Below, piece by piece: positions 5,417-46,246 of a DNA stretch of 64,000 bases. Each line of letters starts with the position of its first letter. The first letter of the stretch is position 1. Source of the DNA: a virus (lineage: Duplodnaviria; Heunggongvirae; Uroviricota; Caudoviricetes). The translations under genes were made by a program, and so were the position numbers. The notes under the pieces are model-generated. The model was not told the origin of the DNA. It made no database searches and worked only from the letters and a program-made list of their open reading frames with translations. Location: the IMG/VR virus record IMGVR_UViG_2823949316_000001, positions 5,531-69,530 of that record. The stretch is one strand, 5' to 3'.

Positions 5417-5875
5417 ATGTCGTCTCTCAACCAAGTAAACCTGATCGGCCGCCTGGGGCAGGATCCCGAAGTGAAGTACCTGCCCAATGGCGACGCGGTC
5501 TGCAACCTGAGCCTGGCGACGTCCGAGCGCTGGAAGGACAAGCAGACCCAGGAGCAAAAGGAAAAAACCGAGTGGCATAAGGTGGTGGTGTTCGGCAAGC
5601 TCGCCGAGATCGCCGGCCAGTACCTGCGCAAGGGCGCCCTGGTCTACTTCCAGGGCAAGCTGGAAACTCGCCAGTGGGAGAAGGACGGCGAGAAGCGCTA
5701 CACCACCGAGATCCGTGCGAGCGAGATGAAGATGCTCGGCAACAAGGACGATGCCGGCGGTCGTGATGGCAACAATACCCAACAGCAGCCCCGCCAACAG
5801 ACGCCGCAGCGTACTGCCCCGCAGCAGCCGAAGGGCGGAGCGGCTGACCAATTCGACGATGACGTGCCGTTCTGA
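5417..5875 (+). CDS. ssb: Single-stranded DNA-binding protein
   Basis: OB-fold N-terminus ([21 protein letters not shown]...[12 protein letters not shown]...), Gln/Pro-rich linker, canonical acidic tail DDDVPF. Confidence 0.9.
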
Positions 5876-18934: not shown

Positions 18935-18954
18935 TTCGGGCGCACATAGGGCTC
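18935..18954 (+). repeat. TTCGGGCGC-N5-GGGCGC family motif, copy 1 (TTCGGGCGCACATAGGGCTC)
   Basis: Intergenic. Followed by an extended -10 TGgTACAAT at 19005-19014 and the gene at 19049. Confidence 0.55.
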
Positions 18955-23736: not shown

Positions 23737-24189
23737 ATGACCATGGCGGAGCTGACCGAGGTGACCGGCATCCCGTCGCGCGTGCTCGCCGCGCAAAAGC
23801 GTGCAGAGGGCTGGGCCAAGGTGGTCAAGTCCGGCCAAACCGAAGAGGCCGCAGAGGCGGTGATCCGCTTCAACGAGTGGAAGATGCAGGTCGCCGAGGT
23901 CAACGCCCGCGATGGCGAGGCCATGCCGAACCTGGCCGTGCCCCTGCACGAGGACGCCGTGCACAAGCTGCTCGAGCGCCACAAGGCCGAACTGATCGCG
24001 CCGCGCGTCCTGTCGCAGGAGGCGATCAAGATCCGGCACAGCGACCCGAACATGGCGTTCCAGAAGGCGAAGCTGGCCAAGATCACGGCCGAGACGCTGG
24101 ACATCCTGCATCGGGCCGAGCGCCGGGCCTTTGGCGTGAAGGACGACGAGAAGCCGGGCGGCGGCGTGGTGGTGGTGGAGCGGACATGA
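23737..24189 (+). CDS. HTH DNA-binding protein (about 150 aa); possibly a small-terminase-like or regulatory protein
   Basis: ATG 23737 (alternative in-frame GTG at 23671) in ORF 23338..24189. N-terminal ...MAELTEVTGIPSRVLAAQKRAEGW... Stop overlaps the ParB-MTase start (ATGA). Confidence 0.4.
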   Translation: MTMAELTEVTGIPSRVLAAQKRAEGWAKVVKSGQTEEAAEAVIRFNEWKMQVAEVNARDGEAMPNLAVPLHEDAVHKLLERHKAELIAPRVLSQEAIKIRHSDPNMAFQKAKLAKITAETLDILHRAERRAFGVKDDEKPGGGVVVVERT

Positions 24190-25694
24190 GCGACCTGAGC
24201 AAGATGATGGGCCTCGACCCGGACGTGCCGCAGATCAAACTGCGCCCGCTCGACAGCCTGGTGGCCTACGCCCGCAACAGCCGCACGCACTCGCCGGCCC
24301 AGGTCGAGCAGCTGCAGGCCCTCCTGCTGGAATACGGCTGGACGAACAGCGTCCTGATCGACGACATGGGCATCGTCGCCGGGCACGGGCGCTGCATGGC
24401 CGCTGAGGCGATCTACAAGCGCGGCGAGCAGATCAAGTTCCCGAATGGCACGCCGATCCCGATCGGCATGGTGCCGACCATGGACGTCACCGGCTGGAGC
24501 GCGCAGCAGCGCCGGGCGTACATCATCGCCGACAACCGCTCCGCCCTGTCCGCGGGCTGGGACGACGAAATGCTGAAGCTGGAGCTGGCCGAGCTGAAGG
24601 AAGCCGACTTCGACCTGTCGCTGACCGCCTTCGACGAGGACGAGCTGGCGGCGCTGCTGGCGCCGGAGATCGAGCTGCCCGAAGACAAGGATCCGGACGC
24701 AGCACCTGCAGCACCCGATGAGCCCGTCAGCGTGCCGGGCGACGTGTGGGTGATGGGCGCGCACCGGCTGTGCGTCGGTGATGCCACCAGCGTCGATGCC
24801 TGGGATCGCCTGCTGGGCACCGAGCAGGTCGATATCGTCTGGACAGATCCACCCTACAACGTCGACCAGGGCCGCAAGAACCGCGAGCAGGACAAGTGGG
24901 ACGGCGGCAACCGCGCGGACACGGGCGCGATCGCCAACGACAAGATGTCGCCGGCCGAGTTTTCCGAGTTCCTGCAGACCACCTTCGCCACCCTGTTCGG
25001 CGTGATGAAGCCAGGGGCGCCGATCTACGTGGCGCACTCCGACCTCGAGGGCCAGACCTTCCGCAACGCCTTCGCCGACGCCGGCCTGCACCTGCAGTCC
25101 TGCCTGGTCTGGAAGAAAGACCGGATGGTGCTGGGGCGCATGGACTGGCAGAGCATCCACGAGCCGATCCTGTACGGCTGGAAGAAGGGCAGCGCGCACC
25201 GCTGGTACGGCGGCCGCAAGAACACCAGCGTGATCGACCTGGGCGACGGCTCGCCGTTCACCCGCATGGAGGATGGCCGGTACCAGGTGCGCATCGGCGA
25301 GAGCGTGCTGGTGGTGTCGGCGGATGCCATGGTCGAGCAGCATCCGTCGTCGATGTTGTTCGAGCCCAAGCCGGCGAGCAGTGGCCTGCATCCGACGCAG
25401 AAGCCCGTTGCCCTTGTCGAGCGGATGCTGAAGCAGTCCGCACGTGCCGGCGACCTGGTGGCCGATGCCTTCGGCGGATCCGGCAGCACGCTGATCGCCG
25501 CCGATCGCCTGGGCATGTCGGCACGCCTGATGGAGCTCAGCCCGAAGTTCGCCGACGTGATCGTGCGGCGCTGGGAGCACTACAGCGGGCGCAAGGCGGT
25601 GCACGCGGTGACCGGCGAGGAGTTCCCGGGCGAGGGCGAGGCCCGCGCGCTACCGCCGCAGGTTGATGACCTTGACGACGAAGCGTTGTTCTGA
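24186..25694 (+). CDS. ParB-like nuclease domain fused to beta-class N6A/N4C DNA methyltransferase
   Basis: In-frame ATG (MSDLSKMMGL...) in ORF 23877..25694. ParB-like N-terminus (KLRPLDSLVAYARNSRTHSPAQVEQL). Motif IV VWTDPPYN followed by C-terminal motif I DAFGGSGST. Confidence 0.85.
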   Translation: MSDLSKMMGLDPDVPQIKLRPLDSLVAYARNSRTHSPAQVEQLQALLLEYGWTNSVLIDDMGIVAGHGRCMAAEAIYKRGEQIKFPNGTPIPIGMVPTMDVTGWSAQQRRAYIIADNRSALSAGWDDEMLKLELAELKEADFDLSLTAFDEDELAALLAPEIELPEDKDPDAAPAAPDEPVSVPGDVWVMGAHRLCVGDATSVDAWDRLLGTEQVDIVWTDPPYNVDQGRKNREQDKWDGGNRADTGAIANDKMSPAEFSEFLQTTFATLFGVMKPGAPIYVAHSDLEGQTFRNAFADAGLHLQSCLVWKKDRMVLGRMDWQSIHEPILYGWKKGSAHRWYGGRKNTSVIDLGDGSPFTRMEDGRYQVRIGESVLVVSADAMVEQHPSSMLFEPKPASSGLHPTQKPVALVERMLKQSARAGDLVADAFGGSGSTLIAADRLGMSARLMELSPKFADVIVRRWEHYSGRKAVHAVTGEEFPGEGEARALPPQVDDLDDEALF

Positions 25695-25907: not shown

Positions 25908-26888
25908 GTGGCAGGACTTCCCGCAACCCCCGGCATCGAGATCCAGCATTTCGAAAACGCGGGCATCCGGATATTCACCGGCAAGTACACTGGACAGATA
26001 GACAATTTTACCGTGCCTGAGCACGTCGTGGTTCTGTCGCACTCGGATTACAAGCCGATCAGTTATGCTCCGGTAGAGCGCTGGAAGGTGAACGATGTCT
26101 GCTTCCTCCCCAAGGGATACACGCAGACCGGGCACCTGGCTGAGCTCGCCGAGCTGACTGCTATCAGGATGAGCGACGACCTCTTCACCAAGGTGGCCGA
26201 GGATCACGTCGACCACTCCCGCATCGAATTCCGCTATGCCGACATCACCGGGCCGACGACGCAGTCTCTGTCCGGAGCGCTTCGGCACATGTCCATGACC
26301 GAAGGATTCCGCGAGTGGCCGCTGCTGATCGAGAGCACGGCGATTGCCCTGGCTGTCGCTGCCGTGCGCAAGCTGTCGCCCAAGGCGTCGGTTGCATTCG
26401 ACAAGCAGAGCGAGCTCAGCGCGGCCAGGCGCCGGCGGGTGATGGACTTCATCGACGACAACATCCACCGGCAGATCACCCTGGCTGAGTTGGCAGCAGC
26501 GGCCAACCTGAGCGCCTTCCACTTCGCGCGCCGGTTCAAGGCTGCGACCGGCCAGACGCCGCTGCGGTTCATCGCCGAGCGGCGGGTGGTGGAGGCCAAG
26601 AAGCGCCTGCGTTCAGGGGTGATGCCGCTGGCACAGGTCGCACTGGAATGCGGCTACACCGGCCAGAGCCACTTCACCACAGCGTTCAAGGCCGTTACCG
26701 GCGTCACCCCGGGCATCTACCGCCGGGGAGCTCAGGCGGTGCTGATCGCCGGCCTGCTCTGCTTTTCCCTCATGTACAACGTCGCGACCCAGGCGGGCGC
26801 CATGGATGTCCTGATGGCCGCTATGCATGAGTTCGGCCACGAAGTCGTCGAGTTCGCGGTCGATCTGGATGACTTTCTTGAGCCGTAG
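25908..26888 (+). CDS. AraC/XylS-family transcriptional regulator (326 aa)
   Basis: C-terminal double HTH (...ITLAELAAAANLSAFHFARRFKAATGQTPLRFIAERRVVEAKKRL...ALECGYTGQSHFTTAFKAVTGVTPGIYRR). N-terminal sensor domain. The GTG start at 25908 has no clear SD, so the start is uncertain. Confidence 0.75.
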   Translation: MAGLPATPGIEIQHFENAGIRIFTGKYTGQIDNFTVPEHVVVLSHSDYKPISYAPVERWKVNDVCFLPKGYTQTGHLAELAELTAIRMSDDLFTKVAEDHVDHSRIEFRYADITGPTTQSLSGALRHMSMTEGFREWPLLIESTAIALAVAAVRKLSPKASVAFDKQSELSAARRRRVMDFIDDNIHRQITLAELAAAANLSAFHFARRFKAATGQTPLRFIAERRVVEAKKRLRSGVMPLAQVALECGYTGQSHFTTAFKAVTGVTPGIYRRGAQAVLIAGLLCFSLMYNVATQAGAMDVLMAAMHEFGHEVVEFAVDLDDFLEP

Positions 26889-26955
26889 TTCTGCTGCGCC
26901 ATCATTCGTGACGCGACAATCCTGATCAGGGTTAGTTCTGATCAGGAAAGGCACA

Positions 26956-28134
26956 TTGAAAAAGTCCAATGATTTGCAGCGTGCTGAGTACCAGCACCCG
27001 TTCAAGAAAGCGACTGACGAGCAAGTCATGGAGTGCATACGTGCAAACCTGACCGGCAAGCAGGCGGCCGCCAAACTGGGTATCCATGAGCGCGTCTACT
27101 TCTCCCGCAAAGCTGCGTTGGTGAAGAAGGGCTTCAGCCCTGAGCACGACATGGTGCACACGGTGCCTGACGGCTTCCTGGTGAAGGGCGTCAGCACCTA
27201 CTACGACGTGGATGGCAAGCCGCGCGGCCAGTGGGTCAAGAGCCAGGTCGACCGCGAGCGCCAGATCGAGCTGCTGCGCGAGGCCTGCGAGGCCATGGTC
27301 GAAGAGCTGCCCAAGCTCAAGCCGCGCAAGGATAACGGCCAGTACCTGTCGCACCTGATGGCAACCTACCCGATCGGCGATGCCCACATCGGCATGCGCG
27401 CCTGGGCCGAGGAGACGCAGGGCCAGAACTGGGATCTTGAGATCGGTGAGCGGATTCAGTGCGGCGCGATGGCCGCCCTCGTCGAGATGTCGCCGCCAGC
27501 CGAGAAGGCGGTCATCATCAACCTTGGGGATTGGTTCCACGCCGACAACATGGAAGGCACGACCAGCCGTAGCGGGCACATCCTGGACATGGACGGCCGC
27601 TACGCCAAGATGATCCGCGTCGGCATCAAGGTCATGCGCCAGTGCATCGAGTCAGCCCTGGGCAAGCACCGCACCGTGCGCGTCATCAACGTGATCGGCA
27701 ACCACGACGACACCGGCGCCATCTGGCTGGGCATCGCCCTGGGCCACATCTACGCCAACGAGCCGCGCGTCGAGATCGACAACAGCCCGGCGCCGTTCAT
27801 GTACGTCGAGCACGGCAAGGTGCTGATCGGCATGCACCACGGCCACACCTGCAAGCCCGACCGCCTGCCTGGCGTGATGGCTGCAGACCAGGCCAAGGCC
27901 TGGGGCCGCACCGAGTACCGCTACTGGTTCCTGGGCCACGTCCACCACCAGAGCGTCAAGGAATACGCCGGTGTCACCGTCGAGTCGTTCAACACGCTGA
28001 CCGCCAAGGACGCGTATGCTGCCTGGGGCGGCTACCGCGCGCAGCAGAACATGAAGTGCATCGTCATGCATTCGGAGTTCGGCGAAGTCGCGCGCCACAT
28101 CGTCAACCCGGCCATGCTCGAAGGCGCGGCCTGA
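26956..28134 (+). CDS. Calcineurin-like metallophosphoesterase with N-terminal HTH-like region (392 aa)
   Basis: Motifs GDAHIG, GDWFH, GNHDD, GMHHGH, GHVHH in canonical order. The 5' end of the gene is lower GC. Confidence 0.7.
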   Translation: MKKSNDLQRAEYQHPFKKATDEQVMECIRANLTGKQAAAKLGIHERVYFSRKAALVKKGFSPEHDMVHTVPDGFLVKGVSTYYDVDGKPRGQWVKSQVDRERQIELLREACEAMVEELPKLKPRKDNGQYLSHLMATYPIGDAHIGMRAWAEETQGQNWDLEIGERIQCGAMAALVEMSPPAEKAVIINLGDWFHADNMEGTTSRSGHILDMDGRYAKMIRVGIKVMRQCIESALGKHRTVRVINVIGNHDDTGAIWLGIALGHIYANEPRVEIDNSPAPFMYVEHGKVLIGMHHGHTCKPDRLPGVMAADQAKAWGRTEYRYWFLGHVHHQSVKEYAGVTVESFNTLTAKDAYAAWGGYRAQQNMKCIVMHSEFGEVARHIVNPAMLEGAA

Positions 28135-28156
28135 TCAACCATCACAAGGAGCACCC

Positions 28157-28432
28157 ATGAAGTATTTCGAACTGCCCGTAGGCGTCGTCCTGACCGGCCT
28201 GGGCAACGCCCGCCTGATCCACCAGGGCGGTGGCGTCTTCGTCTGTTCTGACGCACACGCGCCGAAGGTATTCGAGGTGGCTGCGCCGGAGGGCGAGGCC
28301 CTGGACACCAGTGCGGTGCCGGAGCTCGAGTCGATCGCCGACTACGGCGGTGTGTGGCAGCTGGGCAAGCGCGACATCGAGCAGCCAGCGCCGGCCGAGG
28401 AGCCTGAGCCCGTCGAGGAGCCTGCCGAGTGA
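28157..28432 (+). CDS. Hypothetical acidic protein (91 aa)
   Basis: ORF-track protein with good RBS AGGAGCACCC. Confidence 0.45.
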   Translation: MKYFELPVGVVLTGLGNARLIHQGGGVFVCSDAHAPKVFEVAAPEGEALDTSAVPELESIADYGGVWQLGKRDIEQPAPAEEPEPVEEPAE

Positions 28433-28728
28433 GCCTCGTTCTCTGGTTCCTGCTCCTGGTCGTCCAGAACGCCGCCTTCACCTGGGTTAGCCGCGCGCGT
28501 AACTCCGGCAGCTACGGCTACCACGCGATCGCCGCGGTGTTCAGCAACGGCATCTGGTTCGTATCGCAGTTCCTCCTGATCGGCATGGTGGTGCGCCCGG
28601 GCATGCAGCTGAGCGACGCCTACCACCTGGGCGCGGTCTACATCGCCGGCACGGTCACCGGTTCGGTGCTGATGCACTGGGTGTCGGTGCGCTGGCTGGA
28701 GCAGGGCAAGCGCAAGGTGGGCGGGTAG
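28429..28728 (+). CDS. Membrane protein, 3 predicted TM segments (99 aa); holin-like topology
   Basis: GTGA-coupled. MSLVLWFLLLVVQNAAFTWV... No endolysin gene was seen nearby, so a lysis role is speculative. Confidence 0.45.
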   Translation: MSLVLWFLLLVVQNAAFTWVSRARNSGSYGYHAIAAVFSNGIWFVSQFLLIGMVVRPGMQLSDAYHLGAVYIAGTVTGSVLMHWVSVRWLEQGKRKVGG

Positions 28729-28768
28729 CCAGACTGCGAGTCTGGGTGTCACCACCTGCAACACCAGC

Positions 28769-28800
28769 AGCGGCGCGCCATCTGAGCGCGCCGCTCTGTT
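28769..28800 (+). terminator. Terminator-like hairpin (AGCGGCGCGC-7nt-GCGCGCCGCT) followed by motif copy 5
   Basis: 10-bp perfect stem followed by a weak T tract (TCTGTTTC). Confidence 0.45.
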
Positions 28801-28820
28801 TCGGGCGCGTATCGGGCGCC
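28799..28820 (+). repeat. TTCGGGCGC-N5-GGGCGC family motif, copy 5 (TTTCGGGCGCGTATCGGGCGCC)
   Basis: Upstream of the higBA-like pair. Confidence 0.5.
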
Positions 28821-28872
28821 TCGGCATGGATTCACACTTGACCGCTATACCGCCTCACGGTATAGGCTGATC

Positions 28873-29163
28873 ATGATATCGAGCTTCCGAGATGCCTGGC
28901 TGCATGAGTTCTACGTCAACGGTACCGGGCACCGGCTGATCCCTGGCGCTATGGAAGGGGCTCTGGCCAGGAAGCTGGACATCATCCGCTTCGCCACGAC
29001 CGAGGGCGATCTGCGGGTACCGCCCGGGAACCGGTTCGAGCACCTGCACGGCAAGCTGGCCGCCTACTGCTCGATCCGGGTCAACAAGCAGTACCGCCTG
29101 ATCTTCCGCTGGAACGACGGCAAAGCGAGCGACGTATACCTGGATCCGCACACGTACCGGTGA
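28873..29163 (+). CDS. higB: HigB-like (RelE/ParE superfamily) toxin
   Basis: 96 aa. C-terminal ...RVNKQYRLIFRWNDGKASDVYLDPHTY matches the HigB/killer-protein pattern (..WRITF.F.NGDAY.L.Y.DYH). Confidence 0.7.
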   Translation: MISSFRDAWLHEFYVNGTGHRLIPGAMEGALARKLDIIRFATTEGDLRVPPGNRFEHLHGKLAAYCSIRVNKQYRLIFRWNDGKASDVYLDPHTYR

Positions 29164-29168
29164 GAGAC

Positions 29169-29474
29169 ATGATCGAGACCAACCGCAAGCCCACGACTGT
29201 CGGCGAGATCCTGACCGCCGAGTTCCTGGAGCCGATGGAGCTGACCCAGACCGACCTGGCCCGGGCCATGGGCGTGCAGACGCGCCTGGTCAACGAGCTG
29301 TGCCGCGATCGCCGGGCCGTGACCGCGGACACCGCCCTGATGCTGGCCGGCGTGTTCGGCACGTCGCCTGAATTCTGGCTCAACGCCCAGCAGGCCACCG
29401 ACCTGTGGGAGGCCATGCACGACGAGAAGCGCCGGCAGCGTATTGCCCGGGCGCGGCCGCTGCAGGCTGCCTGA
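29169..29474 (+). CDS. higA: HigA-like XRE-family HTH antitoxin
   Basis: ...ELTQTDLARAMGVQTRLVNELCRDRRAVTADTALMLAGVFGTSPEFWLNAQ... Overlaps the higB stop (GTG at 29160 or ATG at 29169). Confidence 0.7.
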   Translation: MIETNRKPTTVGEILTAEFLEPMELTQTDLARAMGVQTRLVNELCRDRRAVTADTALMLAGVFGTSPEFWLNAQQATDLWEAMHDEKRRQRIARARPLQAA

Positions 29475-29572
29475 TAGGTTCACGCTGTCTCCCGTGATTG
29501 CACGCAATATCGTTACTCAGATATGATGCGTGAAATCACGATCAAGCCAGGAAACAACCTGGCGGGAGACTT

Positions 29573-30787
29573 ATGGAAGCGCCGTACCAGCTTCACCTGG
29601 GCGACTGCCTGGCAGTGCTCAAAACCCTACCTGACAACTCCGTCGACAGCATCGTCACCGACCCTCCCTATGGCCTGAGCAAAGAGCCCGACATGCTCGA
29701 GGTGTTGCGCCACTGGATGGCCGGCGACGACTACCAGCACAAGGGCGGCGGTTTCATGGGCAAGACCTGGGACAGCTTCGTGCCCGGGCCGAGCGTGTGG
29801 CGCGAGAGCCTGCGCGTGCTCAAGCCTGGCGGCCACCTGCTGGCGTTCTTCGGCACGCGGACGCAGGACATGGGCACGCTGGCTATTCGTTTGGCTGGCT
29901 TCGAGATCCGCGACAGCATCGCCTGGGTGTACGGGTCGGGTTTCCCGAAGTCGCACAATCTTGAGGGCGAGTGGGAAGGCTGGGGTACTGCGCTCAAGCC
30001 GGCGCTGGAGCCGATCGCGGTGGCGCGCAAGCCATTCCGCGGCACCGTGGCGACCAACGTGCTGGCGCACGGCACTGGGGCGCTGAATATCGATGGGTGC
30101 CGGGTCGGTACGACGGTCGAGACATGGCCAAAGTCGAAAAGTTACACTCGACAGGAGCCTGGCGGTCGAGGCGAGAAGGAGTACCAGCTTACAGGAGAGG
30201 CGCCCGCCGGCCGCTGGCCCGCCAACCTGATCCACGACGGCAGCGACGAGGTGGTGGAGCTTTTCCCTGCGCAGGCCGGCGCAGCTGCTCCGGTGCGAGG
30301 CACTGAGGACAGCAAGGCCAGCGTCGGCAATGTGACTGGCGAGCGTGAGCGTGTTCCTGGCGCCTTCCACGCCGACAACGGCAGCGCTGCCCGCTTCTTC
30401 TACTGCGCCAAGGCCAGCCGCAAGGATCGCCACGAGGGCCTGGATGATCCTGGCGCTCAATTCAAGCGCGGCACCACCCTGCGCCAGGTCGAGAACACCG
30501 CGACAACCGGCAACAACCACCCGACCGTCAAGCCCACCGACCTGATGGCCTACCTGTGTCGGCTGGTGACGCCGCCGGGCGGTGTGGTGCTTGACCCGTT
30601 CATGGGTAGCGGCAGTACCGGCAAGGCCGCCATGCGCGAGGGCTTCCGCTTCATCGGCTGCGAGCTGTCGCCGGAGTACCTGGCGATCGCCGAGGCGCGC
30701 ATCGAGCACGAGCTGGTGAAGCGCGCGCCTGAGCCAGCGGTCGTGCAGGCGGTGCAGCAGGATATGTTCGCCCAGGAGGCCGTGTGA
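29573..30787 (+). CDS. Beta-class N6-adenine/N4-cytosine DNA methyltransferase (404 aa)
   Basis: Motif IV SIVTDPPYGL near the N-terminus and motif I DPFMGSGSTGKAA near the C-terminus. Confidence 0.85.
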   Translation: MEAPYQLHLGDCLAVLKTLPDNSVDSIVTDPPYGLSKEPDMLEVLRHWMAGDDYQHKGGGFMGKTWDSFVPGPSVWRESLRVLKPGGHLLAFFGTRTQDMGTLAIRLAGFEIRDSIAWVYGSGFPKSHNLEGEWEGWGTALKPALEPIAVARKPFRGTVATNVLAHGTGALNIDGCRVGTTVETWPKSKSYTRQEPGGRGEKEYQLTGEAPAGRWPANLIHDGSDEVVELFPAQAGAAAPVRGTEDSKASVGNVTGERERVPGAFHADNGSAARFFYCAKASRKDRHEGLDDPGAQFKRGTTLRQVENTATTGNNHPTVKPTDLMAYLCRLVTPPGGVVLDPFMGSGSTGKAAMREGFRFIGCELSPEYLAIAEARIEHELVKRAPEPAVVQAVQQDMFAQEAV

Positions 30788-31434
30788 GCCTCCTTATCCC
30801 GATGTCGCACGCCGACCTGTGCGCCACCGCGGTGAAGTGGCTGAAGCGGGCGAACTCGGCCGGCGGCCCGGGCTGCCACGTGGCGGTCAGCGAGTGCCGG
30901 TCGGGCTGGACTGGTGAGGTGCCGGACGCGATCGGGTTCCGCGCTGCTGGCAGCTACGACGACGGGTCGGTCGTGGTCGAGTGCAAGACCAGCCGTGCCG
31001 ACTTCCTGGCCGATCGCAAGAAGGCGCACCGCACCACCGGCGGCTGCGGCAACTGGCGGTATTTCATGGCGCCAGAGGGGCTGATCAGCCCTGACGAGCT
31101 GCCGCCAGGCTGGGGCCTGCTCACGGTGAACAGCCGCGGGCACGTGAAGGCAGTGGCCGGCCCTGCGGCGCACTACGGCGGGCGGTACGACGCCAGGCTC
31201 GAGGCCATCGAGGCCTTCCGCCACGTCGCCGATCGCGACCGCGAGCAGTTCCTGCTGACGAAGTTGCTGCACCGTGTCGGCGATGCCGAGGAGATGAACC
31301 GGAAGATCAAGGCTGTCTACGCGGAGCAGACCAGGCTGATCAATCGCGTGAACTCGCAGATCAGGGAACTCGACGAGCTGCGCAACGAGAACTGGCGCCT
31401 GAAGCACGCGCTTGAGCAGGCTCAATCCAGATAG
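30784..31434 (+). CDS. Putative PD-(D/E)xK-type nuclease with C-terminal coiled coil (216 aa), GTGA-coupled to the methyltransferase
   Basis: ...GEVPDAIGFRAAGSYDDGSVVVECKTSRADF... gives a D ... E-x-K arrangement. The nuclease assignment is a motif-level inference. Confidence 0.45.
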   Translation: MSLLIPMSHADLCATAVKWLKRANSAGGPGCHVAVSECRSGWTGEVPDAIGFRAAGSYDDGSVVVECKTSRADFLADRKKAHRTTGGCGNWRYFMAPEGLISPDELPPGWGLLTVNSRGHVKAVAGPAAHYGGRYDARLEAIEAFRHVADRDREQFLLTKLLHRVGDAEEMNRKIKAVYAEQTRLINRVNSQIRELDELRNENWRLKHALEQAQSR

Positions 31435-31467
31435 ATAATCAGGGCGTCACAGCTCAGGAACACAAGG

Positions 31468-31498
31468 ACGGCGCGGCCTGCGAGGGTTGCGCCGTTTT
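31468..31498 (+). terminator. Rho-independent terminator-like hairpin + TTTT
   Basis: ACGGCGC-14nt-GCGCCGT then TTTTCATT. Immediately followed by motif copy 6. Confidence 0.5.
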
Positions 31499-31519
31499 CA
31501 TTGGGCGCACATAGGGCGC
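31498..31519 (+). repeat. TTCGGGCGC-N5-GGGCGC family motif, copy 6 (CATTGGGCGCACATAGGGCGCA)
   Basis: Upstream of the SPFH gene. Confidence 0.5.
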
Positions 31520-38285: not shown

Positions 38286-41200
38286 ATGACCACTATCGTG
38301 CCCACGTCTATGCATCGCCAAGTCCTGCTGATCAAAGCCCAGGGTGATTTCAAGCACTCTGGAAAATACTTCCTGCAGAACGGGCGGTGGCATAAATTGC
38401 ACCCGGACAAGCCGGCGCCGAAGGGCGCGCCAGTGGCGGCCCACCCGAAGGCCGCCGGTAACCACGCGCCTGTGGCGCACTTCACCGACGACGAGTGGCA
38501 GAAGCTCAAGCTGCCAGCCGAGAACAGCAACGCCGGCACCTTCAACAAGCAGCTCGAACAGCTCAAGCAGCTGAGCGACGCCGGCGACGTGACCGGCATC
38601 CTCGGCATGCAGCTCGGCACGAATACCTACGGAAAAAAGCTCTCGACGATCGCCAACCACCTGCTCGGCCTGCACGGCAGCGAGCACAAGGTCGCGCCCG
38701 GGCAGAAGGCTGGCGAGCATGCGGCTGTGCAGCAGGCGCCGGCTGAGCACAGCGCAGCGTCACCGGCCACCGAGCCCAAGGCGGAGGAGAAGCCAGCCGC
38801 CCCGGCCGAGAAGCCAGCGGCGAGCAAGCCTGACGCCATCGCCAAGTTCCAGGCCTCGCATGCGAAGCAAGGCACACCATCGACAACGGTCGATGGCAAA
38901 GACTGGTTCGTGGTCGGCACTGGCACCACCAATGACGAAGGCAAGGTCTACGCGCACCTGGCGAGCAAGACCGAAGGCCAGGTTCAGAAAAACGGCTTCG
39001 TACCGAAACAGATGGCCGACTGGATCGACCCGGCGACGATCAGCGACCCGAAGAAGACGGCAGCTGCTGCAGCATCGAAGGCGACCGGCTTGCCCATGCC
39101 CGCCTTCGTGGAAGGCAAGACCACCACTGGGGTGGTCAGCTACTACGAGGCCCAGGCCCAGAAAATCCTCGACATGGCCGCCGCCGGCGACGTGGAAGGC
39201 CTGGCGGCCATGAAGGAAGACGGCCTGAAGCCGAACAGCAAAGGCAAGGTCAGCAACACCTTCAAGGGCAAGACCGAGAACAGCAAAACGCTGCTGGCGC
39301 TGCATGCGCAGGCGGTCGTGCATGCCAAGGGTGGCGCCACCGCGGAACAGCCGGCACCAGCGGCCGAGGCCAGCACCCCTGCGCCGGCCGAGCCTTCGCC
39401 GGCCGAGAAAGTGAAGCAGGCCACGCAGGCAGCCACCGCTGCCGTGGCGCAGACGCCAGAGCACCAGGAGGCGGTCGCGATCGCCACTGCCAGCCTGGCC
39501 GGCTCGAAGGTCTCCCAGATCCCGTGGGACAGCCAGCTGCTGCCGGACAGCAACAAGAACGCAAAGAGCCACAACAAGCAGGTCGCGAAGATCCAGGCGA
39601 TGGCCGAGGCCGGTGACCTGGCTGGGCTGGAGGCGCTGAAATTCGGCACCAACACCTACGGCAAGAAGCAGGAGAAGCTGAAGCAGCTGGCGATCGCCGC
39701 GCTGCAGGAGGACGCCGCAGCGCCTGTACCTGCTGCCGCACCTGCGCCTGCCGAGAAGAAGGGCTACGACAAGTACGGCATCTTCGACAGCCTCACGAGC
39801 GACATCGACACTGCCGCCAGCGGCGGCGATGCGTCCACGCTGAAGGACATCGAATCCTACCTGAATACGCCGGCCCACAAGAACGAGCCCGGGCTGGACG
39901 CGATCAAAAAATATCTGGATAGGGCAAAGGCGTCCGTGGCGACACCGGCGGCTCCTGCCGCAGAGCAAGGCCCCAAGGAAGGCGACACCAAGCAAGGCGC
40001 CGATGGCATGCTCGTGTTCAAGGACGGCCGCTGGCACAAGCAGGCCGAGCCGGCAGCAGCCGCTCCTGAGCCTGCCCCAGCCCATCCGATCGACGCAGTC
40101 CCGATGCCGGAGCTCACCTTCTCGAGCGCCGCCAGCAACGCGAAGGTGGCGGCCGCCCTGGAGAAGCTGAAGGAACAGATCAAGGCGGAAGGGCCTGGCG
40201 CGCTCAAGGGCGTAACCAAGCACATGAAGAGCAAGGGCAAGTACATCGTCAGCCTGCCCGGCACATACGGCAGCCTGAAGGTGTACGGCTACGAGCACGC
40301 GCCCGACCATGCTGGCACCAAGGTGCACGCCTACATCGAGGCACTGAAAGCTGCAGCAGGCAAGCCCAGCAAGGCCCCCGCGAAAGCCAAGGCCAAAAAT
40401 CCTGTCGTTGACGCCGATGGCATCCAGTCCATGGACAGCTGGAAGAAGACCGGGGAGCAGGCCGGCTCGAACCCAGGCGGCAAGTTCAAGGACGAGAACG
40501 GCGTCGAGTGGTACTGCAAATTCCCGTCCGACGAGGATGTCGCCAAGTCCGAGGTGCTGGCCGCGAAGCTCTACGCTGTCGCCGGCGTGATCGGCCAGGA
40601 CGCGAAGCTGATCAAGAAGGACGGCAAGCTGGGCATCGCTTCCCGCTGGACGACCGTGAGCAAGGCTGCGCCAAAGGATCTGGCCAAGGCCGCGGGCGCG
40701 CAGTCCGGGTTCGCCGTCGACGCGTGGCTCGCGAACTGGGACGTCGTCGGCATGGGCTTCGACAACCTGCAGGTCGGGCCGGATGGCAAGGCCGTCCGCG
40801 TCGATGCCGGCGGCTCACTCACCTACCGCGCCCAGGGCGGCAAGAAGGCGTTCGGCGCCACCGTCGCCGAGATCGACAGCATGCGCGACGCGAAGGTCAA
40901 CGCCCAGTCGGCGGCCGTGTTCGGCAGCATGACCCAGGCCGACCTGACGGCATCCGTGGCGAAGGTGGCGGCGATCCCTGATTCCGCCATCAAGAACCTG
41001 GTGGAGCTGCACGGCCCAGGCGATGCGGCAGAGCGCAAGGCGCTGGCTGACACTCTGATCGCCCGCAAGAACGACCTGATCGCCAAGTATCCCAAGGCTG
41101 CCAAGACGCCGAAAAAGCGCCTTGACCCGAACAGCCTGCCGGTCGATCCGGATCGCCTGCCGAAGGCGCACGACTTCAACAACTGGCTGGGCGCCGGCAA

Positions 41201-42173
41201 GCCTCTGTCGTCGCAGCCGCACGTCAACGCCGCGAACATGGCGGTTGAGCAGGAGCTGCTGGCGCTCGCCAAGACCGGCAACCTGACCAAGCTGAAAGAC
41301 TTCCAGTTCCACGCCATCGACAAGGCCACGGGCAACCAGACCGGCCAGCTGATCCCGATCGCCGAGCATCCGTCAAAGCACGTCGTTCAGCTGCACGCCG
41401 ACCTGGTGATGGCCCTGGACGAGATCGCCAACCCGCCGCAGCCCCTGAAGGTCTTCCAGGAGACCGACGTCGGCACGATCGACCAGCTGGCCGCGGCGCT
41501 GCCGTCGAAGAAGTTCGGCACCACCGTCACCTCGGTGCACTCGAACGAGAAGCTGGGCTTCTGGGTGGTGCTGGGCACGGCGCACGGCGCAGCGAAGTTC
41601 AAACCGTCCAAGGTGATGGACTATTCGAGCGCGGCGATCGCGGCGGCGAAAGAGAAGTTCCAGCAGGCCAGCCACCTGGCCAAGCACTTCATCTACTCGG
41701 TGCAGGCATCCGGCAGCTACAACGACCTGTTCCGCGCCGGCAAGTCGCACGATCACGCCGGCAACAAGCTGTCGGACGTGGCCAAGGCCGCGCTCGAGCA
41801 CGCGACCACCATGCCGGAAGGCACCAGCTTGTACCGCTGGCAGTCGATACCTGACGACATGGTGAAGAAGATCCTGGACGCGCCGGACGGCACTGTCTTC
41901 CAGGCCACCGGCCCTATGTGCACCTCGTACCACCCAACCGGTACGGCAGGGTTCGGCAAGCACCGCGTGACCGTGCGCTACGCCAATGGCGCCAAGGCGG
42001 TAGAGAGCTTCGCATCCGGGAAGTTTTCCGGTGAAAAAGAGGTGACCACGCTGCCGAACTCGCGCTTCGTGATCCTCAAGAAGGAGATGGTGCCTGACGT
42101 CGAGCACGGGAACCCGGGCGGCAAGCGCCTGGAGCTGGAGGTGCTGATGTTACCTCCCGATATGGGCCTGTGA
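38286..42173 (+). CDS. 1295-aa polyvalent protein: N-terminal tandem repeats (GTNTYGKK-type), Ala/Pro-rich linkers, central atypical-kinase-like domain, C-terminal R-S-ExE mono-ADP-ribosyltransferase-like domain
   Basis: Uninterrupted 3.9-kb ORF. About 45-aa repeats ...AGDVTGILGMQLGTNTYGKK... / ...AGDLAGLEALKFGTNTYGKK..., plus degenerate copies. Kinase-like motifs GSNPGGKFKDENGVEWYCKF (Gly-rich loop + Lys), DAWLANWD (D-x4-N), VRVDAGG (DFG-like). C-terminal LYRW (Arg), CTSY (STS-like), SGEKEV (ExE) at ART-typical spacings. Confidence 0.8.
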   Translation: MTTIVPTSMHRQVLLIKAQGDFKHSGKYFLQNGRWHKLHPDKPAPKGAPVAAHPKAAGNHAPVAHFTDDEWQKLKLPAENSNAGTFNKQLEQLKQLSDAGDVTGILGMQLGTNTYGKKLSTIANHLLGLHGSEHKVAPGQKAGEHAAVQQAPAEHSAASPATEPKAEEKPAAPAEKPAASKPDAIAKFQASHAKQGTPSTTVDGKDWFVVGTGTTNDEGKVYAHLASKTEGQVQKNGFVPKQMADWIDPATISDPKKTAAAAASKATGLPMPAFVEGKTTTGVVSYYEAQAQKILDMAAAGDVEGLAAMKEDGLKPNSKGKVSNTFKGKTENSKTLLALHAQAVVHAKGGATAEQPAPAAEASTPAPAEPSPAEKVKQATQAATAAVAQTPEHQEAVAIATASLAGSKVSQIPWDSQLLPDSNKNAKSHNKQVAKIQAMAEAGDLAGLEALKFGTNTYGKKQEKLKQLAIAALQEDAAAPVPAAAPAPAEKKGYDKYGIFDSLTSDIDTAASGGDASTLKDIESYLNTPAHKNEPGLDAIKKYLDRAKASVATPAAPAAEQGPKEGDTKQGADGMLVFKDGRWHKQAEPAAAAPEPAPAHPIDAVPMPELTFSSAASNAKVAAALEKLKEQIKAEGPGALKGVTKHMKSKGKYIVSLPGTYGSLKVYGYEHAPDHAGTKVHAYIEALKAAAGKPSKAPAKAKAKNPVVDADGIQSMDSWKKTGEQAGSNPGGKFKDENGVEWYCKFPSDEDVAKSEVLAAKLYAVAGVIGQDAKLIKKDGKLGIASRWTTVSKAAPKDLAKAAGAQSGFAVDAWLANWDVVGMGFDNLQVGPDGKAVRVDAGGSLTYRAQGGKKAFGATVAEIDSMRDAKVNAQSAAVFGSMTQADLTASVAKVAAIPDSAIKNLVELHGPGDAAERKALADTLIARKNDLIAKYPKAAKTPKKRLDPNSLPVDPDRLPKAHDFNNWLGAGKPLSSQPHVNAANMAVEQELLALAKTGNLTKLKDFQFHAIDKATGNQTGQLIPIAEHPSKHVVQLHADLVMALDEIANPPQPLKVFQETDVGTIDQLAAALPSKKFGTTVTSVHSNEKLGFWVVLGTAHGAAKFKPSKVMDYSSAAIAAAKEKFQQASHLAKHFIYSVQASGSYNDLFRAGKSHDHAGNKLSDVAKAALEHATTMPEGTSLYRWQSIPDDMVKKILDAPDGTVFQATGPMCTSYHPTGTAGFGKHRVTVRYANGAKAVESFASGKFSGEKEVTTLPNSRFVILKKEMVPDVEHGNPGGKRLELEVLMLPPDMGL

Positions 42174-44246: not shown

Positions 44247-44600
44247 ATGTGGATCTGTTTAAACAATGCTTTCCTGTCGATCATCGAGCCCGTCAAGGGC
44301 GGCGACAAGCTGCGCGTTCGCGCTCGCCGCAAGGGTGACATCGAGGCGGTCTTCCCGGGCGCCAAGGTCGAGCGCACCCCGGGCCGTGACTATCTCTACC
44401 GCGCCGAGCTGCCGCGCGAGCAGGTGGTCGCGGCCATCGCCAGCCAGGTGGCCGGCATCAGCTACCCGAACTTCAAGGACAGCGTGAAGAACAAGCCCCT
44501 GCACGATGCCTATGCCCGCTTCTGGGGCATCATGGCCAACCTGCAGGAGCTGCGCCCTTACTCGACCACCAAGCGCCGCGGCCAGGGAGCGTTCCTGTGA
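44247..44600 (+). CDS. Hypothetical protein (117 aa)
   Basis: ORF-track protein with GAGG RBS. Stop overlaps the MTase start (GTGA). Confidence 0.5.
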   Translation: MWICLNNAFLSIIEPVKGGDKLRVRARRKGDIEAVFPGAKVERTPGRDYLYRAELPREQVVAAIASQVAGISYPNFKDSVKNKPLHDAYARFWGIMANLQELRPYSTTKRRGQGAFL

Positions 44601-46246
44601 ACGCCGTCGTAGGCCAGGTGACTGGCGAAATCATCGAGGACGTGTCCGAGTTCTTCGCGCCGATGTCGGCTGACTTGGTGGACAGCCTGATCGGCCAGTA
44701 CAACGCCGCCCGCGGCAACGTCGAGGCCCTGGCGGCTGCCGTGCGCGCCGGCCAGAACGCCTCGGTGCTGCACTACTTTGTCGAGGGCAACGTGCGCGAA
44801 GAGCGCTACACCCTGCCGAAGACGGTCGAGGCCCTGTTCCGCACCGAGGGCGCCATCGCTCAGCTCAACGCCGACTTCTGGAACCGTGCGCTGCGCCTGA
44901 CCGACGTGCTCGACTACATGCCGCAGAAGCGCCGCGACGAGTGGTTCGAGCAGATCCGCAACCCGGAAGGGCGCAAGGCCGGCCGGCACACCAGCGACAC
45001 GGAGCTGCCGCCGCTGCCTGAGTTCGAGGAAGCCACTGTGCGCTCGACCCTGGCCGGCCTGCTGCACAACCGTGCCCAGTTCCTGGCCGAGCGTGTCGAC
45101 GGCATCTTCCGCGCGCTGAGCCGTGCCCACGTGACCAACCAGCCCCAGGGCTTTGGCAAGCGCATGATCATCGCCAACGTGTTCGGCTACCAGACCCACG
45201 GCCACATCAACGACCTGCGCTGCGTGATCGCCAAGTTCATGGGGCGCGACGAGCCGAAGCACGGTGCCACTGACCCAGTGATCAAGGCCGCCCGCCGCCA
45301 GAACGGCCAGTGGATGAACGTCGACGGTGGGGCTCTCCGGATCCGTGTTTATGGCGGCGTCGGTACCGCGCACCTCGAGGTGCACCCGGACATGGCCTGG
45401 CGCCTGAATGCCATCCTGGCCAGCCTGCACCCCCTCGCTATCCCGGCCGAGTTCCGCACCAAGCCGAAGCGCGTGAAGAAGATCAAGGACTTCGAGCTCT
45501 TCGACCGTCCGCTGCCGTTCGCGGTGATCCATCTGCTGGCAGGCATGCGCCAGGTTCGTGAGCGCATCGAACCAGCCTATCCGGAGCGCTACCGCGACGT
45601 GCCGAACGCGCTCAGCTGGGACTACGGCCAGCACGAGAAAGCGGCAATGGCGGAAGCCGAGAAGGTGCTGATGTCCATCGGCGCGGTGAAGGAGAAGCAC
45701 TACTGGCAGTTCGACTACAACCCGCAAGAGGTGCTTGATCAGGTGGTGTGCTCCGGCTGCATCCCCGACCACAAGTCGCACCAGTTCTACCCGACCCCGG
45801 CGTCAGTGGCCGAGAAGGCGATCGAGCTGGCCGAGATCCAGCCAGGGCATCAAGTGCTGGAGCCGAGCGCCGGCCAGGGTGGTCTGGCTGACCTGATCCC
45901 TGAACTTGCCTTCACCAGCTGCGTCGAGATCAGCCCGCTGCACTGCCAGATCCTCAAGGCCAAGGGCCACAACGTGATCGAGGCCGACTTCCTCAAGTGG
46001 CGCGGGATCGGCGCGTTCCACCGGGTGGTGATGAACCCGCCTTTCAGCGAGGGCCGCTGGCAGGCGCACCTGCAGCACGCCGCGACCATGCTCTACCCGG
46101 GCGGCCGTCTCGTCGCCATCCTGCCTGCCAGCGCCAAGGGCAAGCAGGTGCTGGAAGGCTTCGACCTGCAGTGGTCGCCGGTGATGGAGAACCAGTTCGC
46201 CGGAACGAGCGTGGACGTGGTGATCCTGACCGCTACCCGCCTGTAA
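44597..46246 (+). CDS. Gamma-class N6-adenine DNA methyltransferase fused to an N-terminal ~350-aa domain of unknown function (549 aa)
   Basis: C-terminal FYPTP ... VLEPSAGQGGL (motif I) ... VVMNPPFSEG (motif IV, NPPF) in gamma-class order. Confidence 0.8.
   Translation: MNAVVGQVTGEIIEDVSEFFAPMSADLVDSLIGQYNAARGNVEALAAAVRAGQNASVLHYFVEGNVREERYTLPKTVEALFRTEGAIAQLNADFWNRALRLTDVLDYMPQKRRDEWFEQIRNPEGRKAGRHTSDTELPPLPEFEEATVRSTLAGLLHNRAQFLAERVDGIFRALSRAHVTNQPQGFGKRMIIANVFGYQTHGHINDLRCVIAKFMGRDEPKHGATDPVIKAARRQNGQWMNVDGGALRIRVYGGVGTAHLEVHPDMAWRLNAILASLHPLAIPAEFRTKPKRVKKIKDFELFDRPLPFAVIHLLAGMRQVRERIEPAYPERYRDVPNALSWDYGQHEKAAMAEAEKVLMSIGAVKEKHYWQFDYNPQEVLDQVVCSGCIPDHKSHQFYPTPASVAEKAIELAEIQPGHQVLEPSAGQGGLADLIPELAFTSCVEISPLHCQILKAKGHNVIEADFLKWRGIGAFHRVVMNPPFSEGRWQAHLQHAATMLYPGGRLVAILPASAKGKQVLEGFDLQWSPVMENQFAGTSVDVVILTATRL

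Follow-up and report, generated by a model that had tools for sequence, protein, structure and literature searches.

Toxin-antitoxin modules of the HigBA family, for which a solved complex is available (6f8s), have the toxin gene first, overlapping toxin and antitoxin genes, an antitoxin with a helix-turn-helix (HTH), and a promoter region that contains a palindrome. Type II restriction-modification (R-M) systems pair a methylase gene with an adjoining, translationally coupled gene for a PD-(D/E)xK nuclease; as a rule, the restriction enzyme of such a pair changes faster in evolution than its methylase does. Orphan phage methyltransferases of the beta class (PHROG 67) share a CcrM-like core, belong to PF01555 and carry the DPPY motif, with the motifs in the order IV...I. 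The lambda nin-region nucleases NinG/Rap and RusA, considered here together with archaeal Hjc, are small, act as dimers and have their niche between replication and late/lysis genes. A further family of PD-(D/E)xK proteins, MmcB/DUF1052 (PF06319), includes SPO1766, solved as 3dnx, and Caulobacter MmcB, an endonuclease implicated in crosslink repair (PMC9578287).

Here we compare these systems with a locus at positions 28769–31434 of a 64,000-nucleotide stretch of viral DNA (the window; positions 5,531 to 69,530 of IMG/VR record IMGVR_UViG_2823949316_000001). The window is a large, Pseudomonas-type, Jeremy/Dolphis-like phage or prophage. An earlier note on this DNA, made from the letters alone, had proposed a HigBA-like module next to a methyltransferase coupled to a PD-(D/E)xK-like protein, and had seen in the latter two a possible compact R-M/defence island of Type II layout. 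We find that the block is most likely an orphan anti-restriction methylase followed by a replication/recombination nuclease.

Organisation of the locus

The ORF listing contains four open reading frames in this interval, all on the plus strand, and every sequence feature of the earlier note is found where it was placed. The reading frames and the elements around them are as follows.

28769–28795, plus strand: GC-rich hairpin with a perfect 10-bp stem and a 7-nt loop (inverted repeat I2), downstream of a gene for a 99-residue protein
28803–28819, plus strand: motif copy 5, GGGCGC-NN-AT-N-GGGCGC
28845–28865, plus strand: perfect palindrome CTATACCG-N5-CGGTATAG (inverted repeat I4), whose end lies 7 nt ahead of the higB ATG
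28873–29163, plus strand: higB, RelE/HigB-family toxin of 96 residues (PF05015, phrog_3066, 6f8s_B)
29160–29474, plus strand: higA, HTH antitoxin of 104 residues, its GTG start overlapping the higB stop (TIGR02607, HTH_3)
29573–30787, plus strand: beta-class N6-adenine/N4-cytosine DNA methyltransferase of 404 residues (PF01555, phrog_67, CcrM 6pbd)
30774–30779, plus strand: Shine-Dalgarno sequence AGGAGG in the 3' end of the methylase gene, with 4 nt between it and the nuclease GTG
30784–31434, plus strand: predicted MmcB-like PD-(D/E)xK nuclease of 216 residues (PHROG 631), with a domain at about residues 1–130, then helices and a long C-terminal helix (residues 168–215)
31465–31498, plus strand: intrinsic terminator hairpin followed by UUUUCAUU, closing the higBA-methylase-nuclease unit
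31503–31519, plus strand: motif copy 6, GGGCGC-NN-AT-N-GGGCGC, at which the next unit starts

The intergenic motif GGGCGC-NN-AT-N-GGGCGC occurs nine times in the window, always on the plus strand, against 0.24 occurrences expected by chance. Its fifth copy, which the earlier note had placed ahead of the toxin-antitoxin pair, is real, and probably serves as a promoter or operator of the phage at the beginning of the higBA-methylase-nuclease transcription unit. That unit would run from copy 5 (28803) to the hairpin at 31465–31498 (−24.8 kcal/mol, z = −3.87, with none of 200 shuffles folding as well), and would enclose three functionally separate things. The upstream hairpin at 28769–28795 (−25.4 kcal/mol, z = −2.05) has the terminator-like look described before, but its T-run is weak. 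Both flanking hairpins escaped a strict scan for promoters and terminators and were seen by folding. No tRNA gene marking an integration site was found within the window.

The HigBA module

HigB matched PF05015 with an E-value of 1.8e-34 (118.5 bits against a cutoff of 27) over model positions 2–91 of 91, and phrog_3066, ‘toxin of TA system’, with an E-value of 1.4e-26. Its closest solved structure is 6f8s_B, a ‘Putative Killer protein’ (E = 2e-10). HigA scored 103.2 bits against a cutoff of 47.7 with the equivalog model TIGR02607, also matched HTH_3, and among solved structures matched 6f8s_A (E = 7e-16) together with several chains named HigA. The PF05015 and TIGR02607 matches bear out the earlier recognition of a HigB-like/HigA-like pair. 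The order is toxin-first, with higB lying upstream of higA and overlapping it, as in the described family. An alternative higA start, an ATG at 29170 with GGTGAGAG before it, would give a product of 101 residues.

The palindrome at 28845–28865 is unique in the window, where 0.03 would be expected by chance, and is probably the HigA operator. HigBA would probably be autoregulated through it. A separate role for HigA, as the controller (C) protein of an R-M system, was considered and rejected, as the PADLOC control-protein match reached only E = 0.044 against the full match to TIGR02607.

The window copy differs from the described HigBA family in being phage-borne and in lying in a variable slot. 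The content of this slot differs between related phages, in which another toxin-antitoxin pair, encoded on the other strand, takes the place of HigBA, and in a comparison with phage Jeremy and a Kaistia prophage only the window has HigBA. Because the slot varies in this way, HigBA is plausible as accessory cargo, and we predict a type II toxin-antitoxin module serving as addiction or abortive-infection cargo. The earlier note had grouped toxin-antitoxin and R-M genes together as prophage defence or addiction cargo; the toxin-antitoxin part of that proposal stands as plausible, whereas the R-M part finds no support in the comparisons below.

The methyltransferase

The methylase matched PF01555 with an E-value of 5.6e-33 (115.2 bits against a cutoff of 26.7) and phrog_67 with an E-value of 1.3e-77, and among solved structures it is closest to CcrM (6pbd, E = 2e-20). 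DPPY lies at residues 30–33 and FMGSG at residues 343–347, which is the beta-class order with motif IV before motif I; this order and the PF01555 match uphold the earlier assignment to the beta class. Because of its DPPY motif, the enzyme is probably an N6-adenine methylase. An insert of ∼130 residues between DPPY and FMGSG, that is, between the catalytic and SAM-binding parts, sets the window enzyme apart from the orphan phage methyltransferases that it otherwise resembles, and its Kaistia orthologue has an extra HTH insert. A methylase annotation is attached to relatives in 414 phage records, mostly of actinophages.

The window phage has three methylases, with genes at 23877–25694, 29573–30787 and 44597–46246, and three methylases in one phage are the usual picture of phage self-protection. 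We predict that the 29573–30787 enzyme is an orphan phage methylase which most likely methylates phage DNA and thereby blocks cutting by host restriction.

Fold and family of the 216-residue nuclease

The AlphaFold model of the 216-residue protein is confident (pLDDT 92) and has the nuclease fold on which the earlier R-M proposal depended. Its core is alpha-beta-beta-beta-alpha-beta, in which strand 2 begins with an aspartate and strand 3 carries (D/E)xK, and in the model the protein is a PD-(D/E)xK nuclease with an intact D...ExK site. The motifs that the earlier note had picked out in the N-terminal half are PDAIGF (residues 47–52) and VVVECK (residues 63–68), and the residues D48, E66 and K68 within them are invariant in 46 homologues. 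The C-terminal coiled coil that it had described is modelled as a single long helix spanning residues 168–215.

The protein matched PHROG 631 along its length, with an E-value of 2.2e-56 and residues 5–203 aligned to profile positions 21–218 of 260. It had no Pfam match at E ≤ 0.01 and none in NCBIfam, and it matched no restriction-enzyme model in PADLOC, where the sole match, to PDC-M68B (E = 0.045), lay on the coiled coil. In the PDB, neither the protein sequence by itself nor a profile found more than a marginal match to 3dnx (E = 0.018–0.037). PF06319 was matched by two of 43 distant relatives at E-values of about 0.003, for which no cutoff comparison is given. Since these sequence matches are marginal, the relationship to MmcB rests on the fold, which is structurally similar to that of the solved member 3dnx. 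The window protein differs from the MmcB/DUF1052 family in missing its Pfam model, in adding a C-terminal helical and coiled-coil extension (residues 135–215), and in being phage-encoded, whereas MmcB is the product of an SOS-regulated chromosomal gene.

Within PHROG 631, which includes P7 upf89.0, the window copy differs in nothing of kind, and is set apart by following a methylase; most members lie after a DUF1367-like gene and before NinG, or among small early genes. The name ‘adenylosuccinate synthase’ that NCBI gives to this family is wrong. Literature searches on phage Dolphis and on MmcB-like proteins of phages turned up no functional studies.

Distribution and neighbours of the nuclease family

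PHROG 631 comprises 5,576 clusters at 50% identity (representatives, E ≤ 0.001) and is present in 645 phage records, including those of virulent Ackermannviridae, and the domain is also found in P7. Kuttervirus EP75, which is virulent, has its homologue directly next to the DNA primase gene. Across the family the commoner neighbours are NinB, NinG, RusA, DUF1367, YbcO, replication protein O, CII and the Ref nuclease, and close relatives of the window nuclease also lie near RecT, RdgC and SSB.

Methylase neighbours were counted over ∼4 kb on each side of the nuclease gene. A relative of the window methylase lay within 4 kb of a nuclease homologue in only three of 83 loci. Any methylase was the nearest same-strand neighbour upstream in 3/68 cases and downstream in 5/67 (about eight of 68 viral loci). 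A separate motif-based methylase detector (DPPY with FxGxG, or C5 motifs) was less sensitive than Pfam, missing the N6_N4 gene in L006, and gives a lower bound only. Orthologues 77% identical to the window nuclease occur in prophages of P. aeruginosa and Aquipseudomonas, between an IstB/DnaC-like gene and NinG, and no methylase was found there in 12.6 kb (in P. aeruginosa the setting is lambdoid).

The window nuclease shares with the lambda nin-region nucleases and Hjc both its small size and the niche between replication and late/lysis genes, and the Hjc model was touched by two of its distant relatives (E = 0.006). NinG and RusA, in contrast, are absent from its structural and sequence matches. 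We predict a metal-dependent MmcB-like PD-(D/E)xK endonuclease, probably a dimer formed through the C-terminal helix, that would most likely cut DNA structures or damaged or branched intermediates in phage replication, recombination or repair. This would be the role of the lambda nin-region nucleases that normally lie beside it, and such an enzyme would not recognise an unmethylated sequence. The substrate is inferred from fold and neighbours only, and we give a role in replication, recombination or repair an even chance.

The nuclease could instead be a counter-defence or host-takeover factor that, for example, destroys a host defence nucleic acid or cuts host DNA non-specifically. The spread of the family through virulent and temperate phages, always in early regions, would suit such a factor, as would the lack of any function for it in the literature. 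The consistent neighbours are, however, genes of recombination and replication (NinG, NinB, RusA, RecT, SSB, RdgC and primase), and the closest relative among cellular proteins is a repair nuclease, which makes a counter-defence function unlikely.

Relationship between the methylase and the nuclease

The methylase stop (TGA, 30785–30787) and the nuclease start (GTG, 30784–30786) overlap in the sequence GTGA, and the translational coupling proposed earlier is supported. GTG 30784 was taken as the start because H9 is invariant, the N-terminus MSLIP is the same as in the phage Dolphis protein, and AGGAGG precedes it. Two other starts were rejected: that of NCBI at V17 (200 residues, P0001) and an ATG at M7, a position occupied by Leu in Dolphis. 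Of 41 adjacent gene pairs between 15.8 and 53.1 kb (a crude, high-GC3 gene set), 10 overlap by four nucleotides, and such an overlap is not unusual in this phage. The GTGA overlap would reflect a compact operon style, with no functional R-M pairing.

The window, phage Jeremy and the Kaistia prophage have a common gene order of ParB-methylase, AraC-like regulator, variable slot, methylase, nuclease and giant protein. Relative to the window, the nuclease is 84% identical in Kaistia and 72% in Jeremy (also 72% in Dolphis), and the methylase is ∼72% identical in Kaistia and 53% in Jeremy. The methylase-nuclease pair is a matter of lineage synteny, with HigBA in the variable cargo slot.

The 4-nt overlap is kept in four Jeremy-like elements, which leaves room for a functional link specific to this lineage. 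The pair could be a weapon found only in Jeremy-like phages, in which the nuclease degrades unmethylated DNA of the host or of competitor phages and the methylase, translated together with it, labels the DNA of the phage itself. Retention of the overlap across diverged elements, despite a methylase only 53–72% identical, and the placing of both genes in one terminator-closed unit speak for it. Gene overlaps are generic in such operons, however, a change of substrate is unlikely at 77% identity to methylase-free orthologues, and in a related contig (L092) two opposite-strand genes separate the nuclease from the methylases. We regard this weapon as quite improbable.

A classical Type II R-M system would require the 216-residue protein to be a sequence-specific endonuclease, with the methylase protecting the same sites and the pair defending the lysogen. 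The two genes are adjacent, with the 4-nt overlap, as in such systems. The nuclease family is nevertheless untied to methylases: most of ∼68 viral loci have none adjacent, orthologues 77–78% identical have no methylase close by, those at 77% lying in methylase-free nin regions of P. aeruginosa prophages, and the domain is found in virulent Ackermannviridae and in P7. PADLOC, Pfam and NCBIfam gave no match to a known restriction-enzyme family, and the domain of ∼130 residues comes without a separate DNA-recognition domain. In addition, sequence identity is higher for the nuclease than for the methylase, and the phage has three methylases. The earlier R-M interpretation is not supported on these grounds: a classical Type II system is very improbable, and the block is probably, with good confidence, not an R-M system. 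The full reading, of HigBA cargo, an orphan methylase and an MmcB-like nuclease of replication, recombination or repair in one unit, is the best explanation and, taken whole, somewhat probable.

Implications

There is a slim chance that the Jeremy/Dolphis-like methylase-nuclease pair is a methylation-gated module built from a co-opted nin-region nuclease, and, if true, it would be an R-M-like weapon made from a repair-type nuclease; on a broader view, PHROG 631 would be a core nuclease of phages with a new substrate. More generally, where a phage methylase lies beside a PD-(D/E)xK gene, the dependence of the nuclease on methylases should be checked family-wide before the pair is called R-M. 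The nine-copy intergenic motif and the presence of HigBA in a swap-in cargo slot offer handles on the organisation of this phage lineage. The nuclease family is very large, lies outside Pfam and carries a wrong name in public annotation, and its conserved place by NinG, primase and recombination genes makes it a reasonable target for the biochemistry of phage replication and repair.

Organisation of the block

The window comes from a large Jeremy/Dolphis-like phage or prophage and encodes a helicase, a primase and the large terminase (48986–51589); no tRNA gene was found in it. Four genes within 28.7–31.5 kb, all on the + strand, had been read in an earlier note as a possible compact Type II restriction-modification (R-M) and toxin–antitoxin defence island. 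The features concerned are:

23877–25694: ParB–N6/N4 methylase fusion (phrog_498)
28769–28795: perfect hairpin, 10-bp stem, −25.4 kcal/mol, 3' of the preceding gene
28803–28819, + strand: GGGCGCGTATCGGGCGC, fifth copy of the repeat GGGCGC-NN-AT-N-GGGCGC
28845–28865: perfect 8-bp palindrome CTATACCG-N5-CGGTATAG, unique within the window
28873–29163, + strand: higB, HigB/RelE-like toxin, 96 aa
29160–29474, + strand: higA, HigA antitoxin, 104 aa
29573–30787, + strand: beta-class N6/N4 DNA methyltransferase, 404 aa
30784–31434, + strand: PD-(D/E)xK-like protein ('nuclease'), 216 aa
31465–31498: strong terminator hairpin, −24.8 kcal/mol, z = −3.87, then UUUUCAUU
44597–46246: third methylase, 549 aa (phrog_6263)

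The 17-nt repeat occurs nine times, always intergenic and on the + strand (at 18938, 22034, 23581, 25781, 28803, 31503, 34308, 38047 and 48160), against 0.24 copies expected by chance. Several copies have a GC-rich hairpin 5' of them and a GGGTGTCAC-like box ∼60 nt upstream, and judged by sequence the element looks like a terminator-plus-promoter or operator cassette bounding phage transcription units. The hairpin and repeat described ahead of higBA are both present, and a sixth copy lies directly 3' of the terminator hairpin at 31465–31498, placing the four genes in one motif-to-terminator unit.

HigBA is accessory cargo in a variable slot

The toxin–antitoxin assignment was confirmed. The 96-aa protein matches PF05015 (E = 1.8e-34) and phrog_3066 ('toxin of TA system'), with 6f8s_B ('Putative Killer protein') as its nearest solved structure, while the 104-aa protein scores 103 bits on TIGR02607 (cutoff 47.7) and resembles 6f8s_A and several HigA structures. 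With 7 nt between its end and the higB ATG, the palindrome is an evident candidate HigA operator and probably serves as such.

The window, phage Jeremy and a Kaistia sp. 32K prophage have a common gene order: the ParB-methylase (75–80% identical), an AraC-like regulator, a variable slot, a methylase of the 29573–30787 type, the nuclease, small genes and a giant protein. The methylase–nuclease pair is thus synteny passed down within a single phage lineage. In the window, the slot between regulator and methylase (25908–29474) contains HigBA together with two small genes and an exonuclease of the phosphoesterase type (phrog_704). Jeremy has a PAPS-reductase-like gene there (stretch L001 1356–3760) and, on the opposite strand, a toxin–antitoxin pair other than HigBA; the Kaistia prophage has four small ORFs (L084 2035–4337), and in the related contig L092 two small opposite-strand genes occupy the same place. 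Because the contents differ in each genome, HigBA is independent accessory cargo and does not form a unit with the methylase. It would act as an autoregulated type II toxin–antitoxin module that serves the phage for addiction or abortive infection.

The exonuclease just upstream of HigBA (26956–28134, 392 aa; metallophosphoesterase-type 'DNA repair exonuclease', phrog_704 E = 5e-126) has no match in the Jeremy (L001) and Kaistia (L084) stretches compared. The giant conserved protein of the Jeremy-like lineage is a 1,295-aa ORF here (38286–42173), without Pfam or PHROG match; its N-terminus is 80–86% identical to a Jeremy protein annotated as an ADP-ribosyltransferase.

The methyltransferases

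The beta-class call for the 404-aa protein also held: it matches PF01555 (E = 5.6e-33) and phrog_67 (E = 1.3e-77), its DPPY (residues 30–33) precedes FMGSG (343–347) as in the beta-class motif order, and its nearest solved relative is CcrM. Three DNA methyltransferase genes (23877–25694, 29573–30787 and 44597–46246) lie in this one phage, and relatives of the 29573–30787 methylase are present in hundreds of phage records. From these numbers we infer that it is most likely an orphan phage methylase, one of three, that pre-empts host restriction. The Kaistia orthologue (L084 4424–6004) is 526 aa long, with an unusual internal helix-turn-helix insert (HTH_3/HTH_31 matches) between two PF01555 matches.

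Fold and active site of the 216-aa protein

No useful match to this protein came from Pfam, NCBIfam or PADLOC scans; it matches PHROG 631, of unknown function (E = 2.2e-56). Across 46 homologues of 50–84% identity, H9, W19, E37, E45, D48, E66, K68, R71, D73, D77, K80, H82, R83, R92 and Y93 are invariant. A confident AlphaFold2 model (pLDDT 92.1, pTM 0.79) has an α-β-β-β-α-β core in which D48 begins strand 2 and E66-x-K68 lies in strand 3, a predicted placement that is the canonical PD-(D/E)xK arrangement; the C-terminal part is helical and ends in a single long helix (168–215). The suggested PD-(D/E)xK-like protein with a coiled-coil tail is therefore upheld. Foldseek against viral models matched it to phage proteins that UniProt calls 'MmcB family DNA repair protein', a link that is marginal by sequence (3dnx, E = 0.02–0.04; PF06319 touched by two of 43 distant relatives, E about 0.003).

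The start is supported by invariant H9, an MSLIP N-terminus common to phage Dolphis, and a Shine-Dalgarno sequence (AGGAGG, 4 nt 5' of the GTG). NCBI begins the identical protein of Microvirga lupini (FHR70_000703) at a later codon, giving 200 aa; that start would drop conserved residues including H9, and was rejected. This alphaproteobacterial assembly holds the sole 100%-identical database protein; an 85% match is from Kaistia, and other close relatives are mostly from Pseudomonas and allies. Either the Jeremy-like phage type spans distant hosts, it seems, or the Microvirga assembly is mixed. Among the 120 homologues collected, this ∼210-aa phage nuclease family is named 'adenylosuccinate synthase' by NCBI and UniRef, a propagated misannotation.

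The methylase–nuclease pair is probably not a restriction-modification system

The sequence observations of the earlier note were all correct; the R-M interpretation built on them is not supported by our comparisons. The 4-nt GTGA overlap exists (GTG 30784–30786, methylase TGA 30785–30787) and is not distinctive, since 4-nt overlaps join 10 of 41 adjacent + strand gene pairs in this region and the Jeremy operon is built likewise.

The nuclease family is large, phage-borne and mostly without a nearby methylase. It comprises 5,576 representatives of 50%-identity clusters (E ≤ 0.001) and occurs in 645 phage GenBank records, including the virulent 157-kb Ackermannviridae, P7 (upf89.0) and Stx phages. 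Across 83 surveyed loci (80 from IMG/VR and three phages), a relative of the 29573–30787 methylase lay within about 4 kb of the nuclease in only three. By Pfam, a methylase of any class was the nearest same-strand neighbour at 3/68 loci upstream and 5/67 downstream, and a search for methylase motifs on either side detected one at 6/64 loci or more. Commoner neighbours are NinB, NinG, RusA, DUF1367, YbcO, replication protein O, CII and the Ref nuclease; the recurrent neighbourhood is the lambdoid nin or replication region.

The nuclease's closest relatives decide the matter. Lambdoid prophages of P. aeruginosa and Aquipseudomonas encode nucleases 77% identical to ours in the order repressor, cro, replication, IstB/DnaC-like, conserved 187-aa gene, nuclease, NinG, holin and lysozyme, with no methylase in 12.6 kb. 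Unprotected, a restriction enzyme with sequence specificity could not be maintained there. Conservation points the same way: in R-M pairs the nuclease is usually less conserved than the methylase, whereas here it is better conserved (84% versus about 72% identity with Kaistia; 72% versus 53% with Jeremy).

Six Pseudomonas lambdoid prophage loci (L004, L086–L089 and L091) carry a conserved overlapping trio of a 187–188-aa gene (without Pfam annotation; 60–82% identical between loci), the MmcB-like nuclease and NinG, which suggests a functional nin-region module. Further close relatives lie near RecT and NinG or near RdgC and SSB, and in Kuttervirus EP75 the homologue abuts a primase gene.

Proposed role of the nuclease

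The 216-aa protein would be a metal-dependent PD-(D/E)xK endonuclease, probably dimeric via its C-terminal helix. A literature search found no characterised member of the phage family, so its substrate is one we infer: its gene neighbours, its place in nin regions and its closest relative in cells make branched or damaged DNA the most likely target, during the phage's replication, recombination or repair. The cellular relative is MmcB of Caulobacter, a PD-(D/E)xK endonuclease linked to the repair of interstrand crosslinks (PMC9578287). A methylation-gated attack by the nuclease on host or rival DNA is an improbable reason for the conserved coupling in Jeremy-like phages. The block consists of ordinary phage genes of known kinds, and its only mildly interesting element is an under-annotated and misnamed nuclease family.
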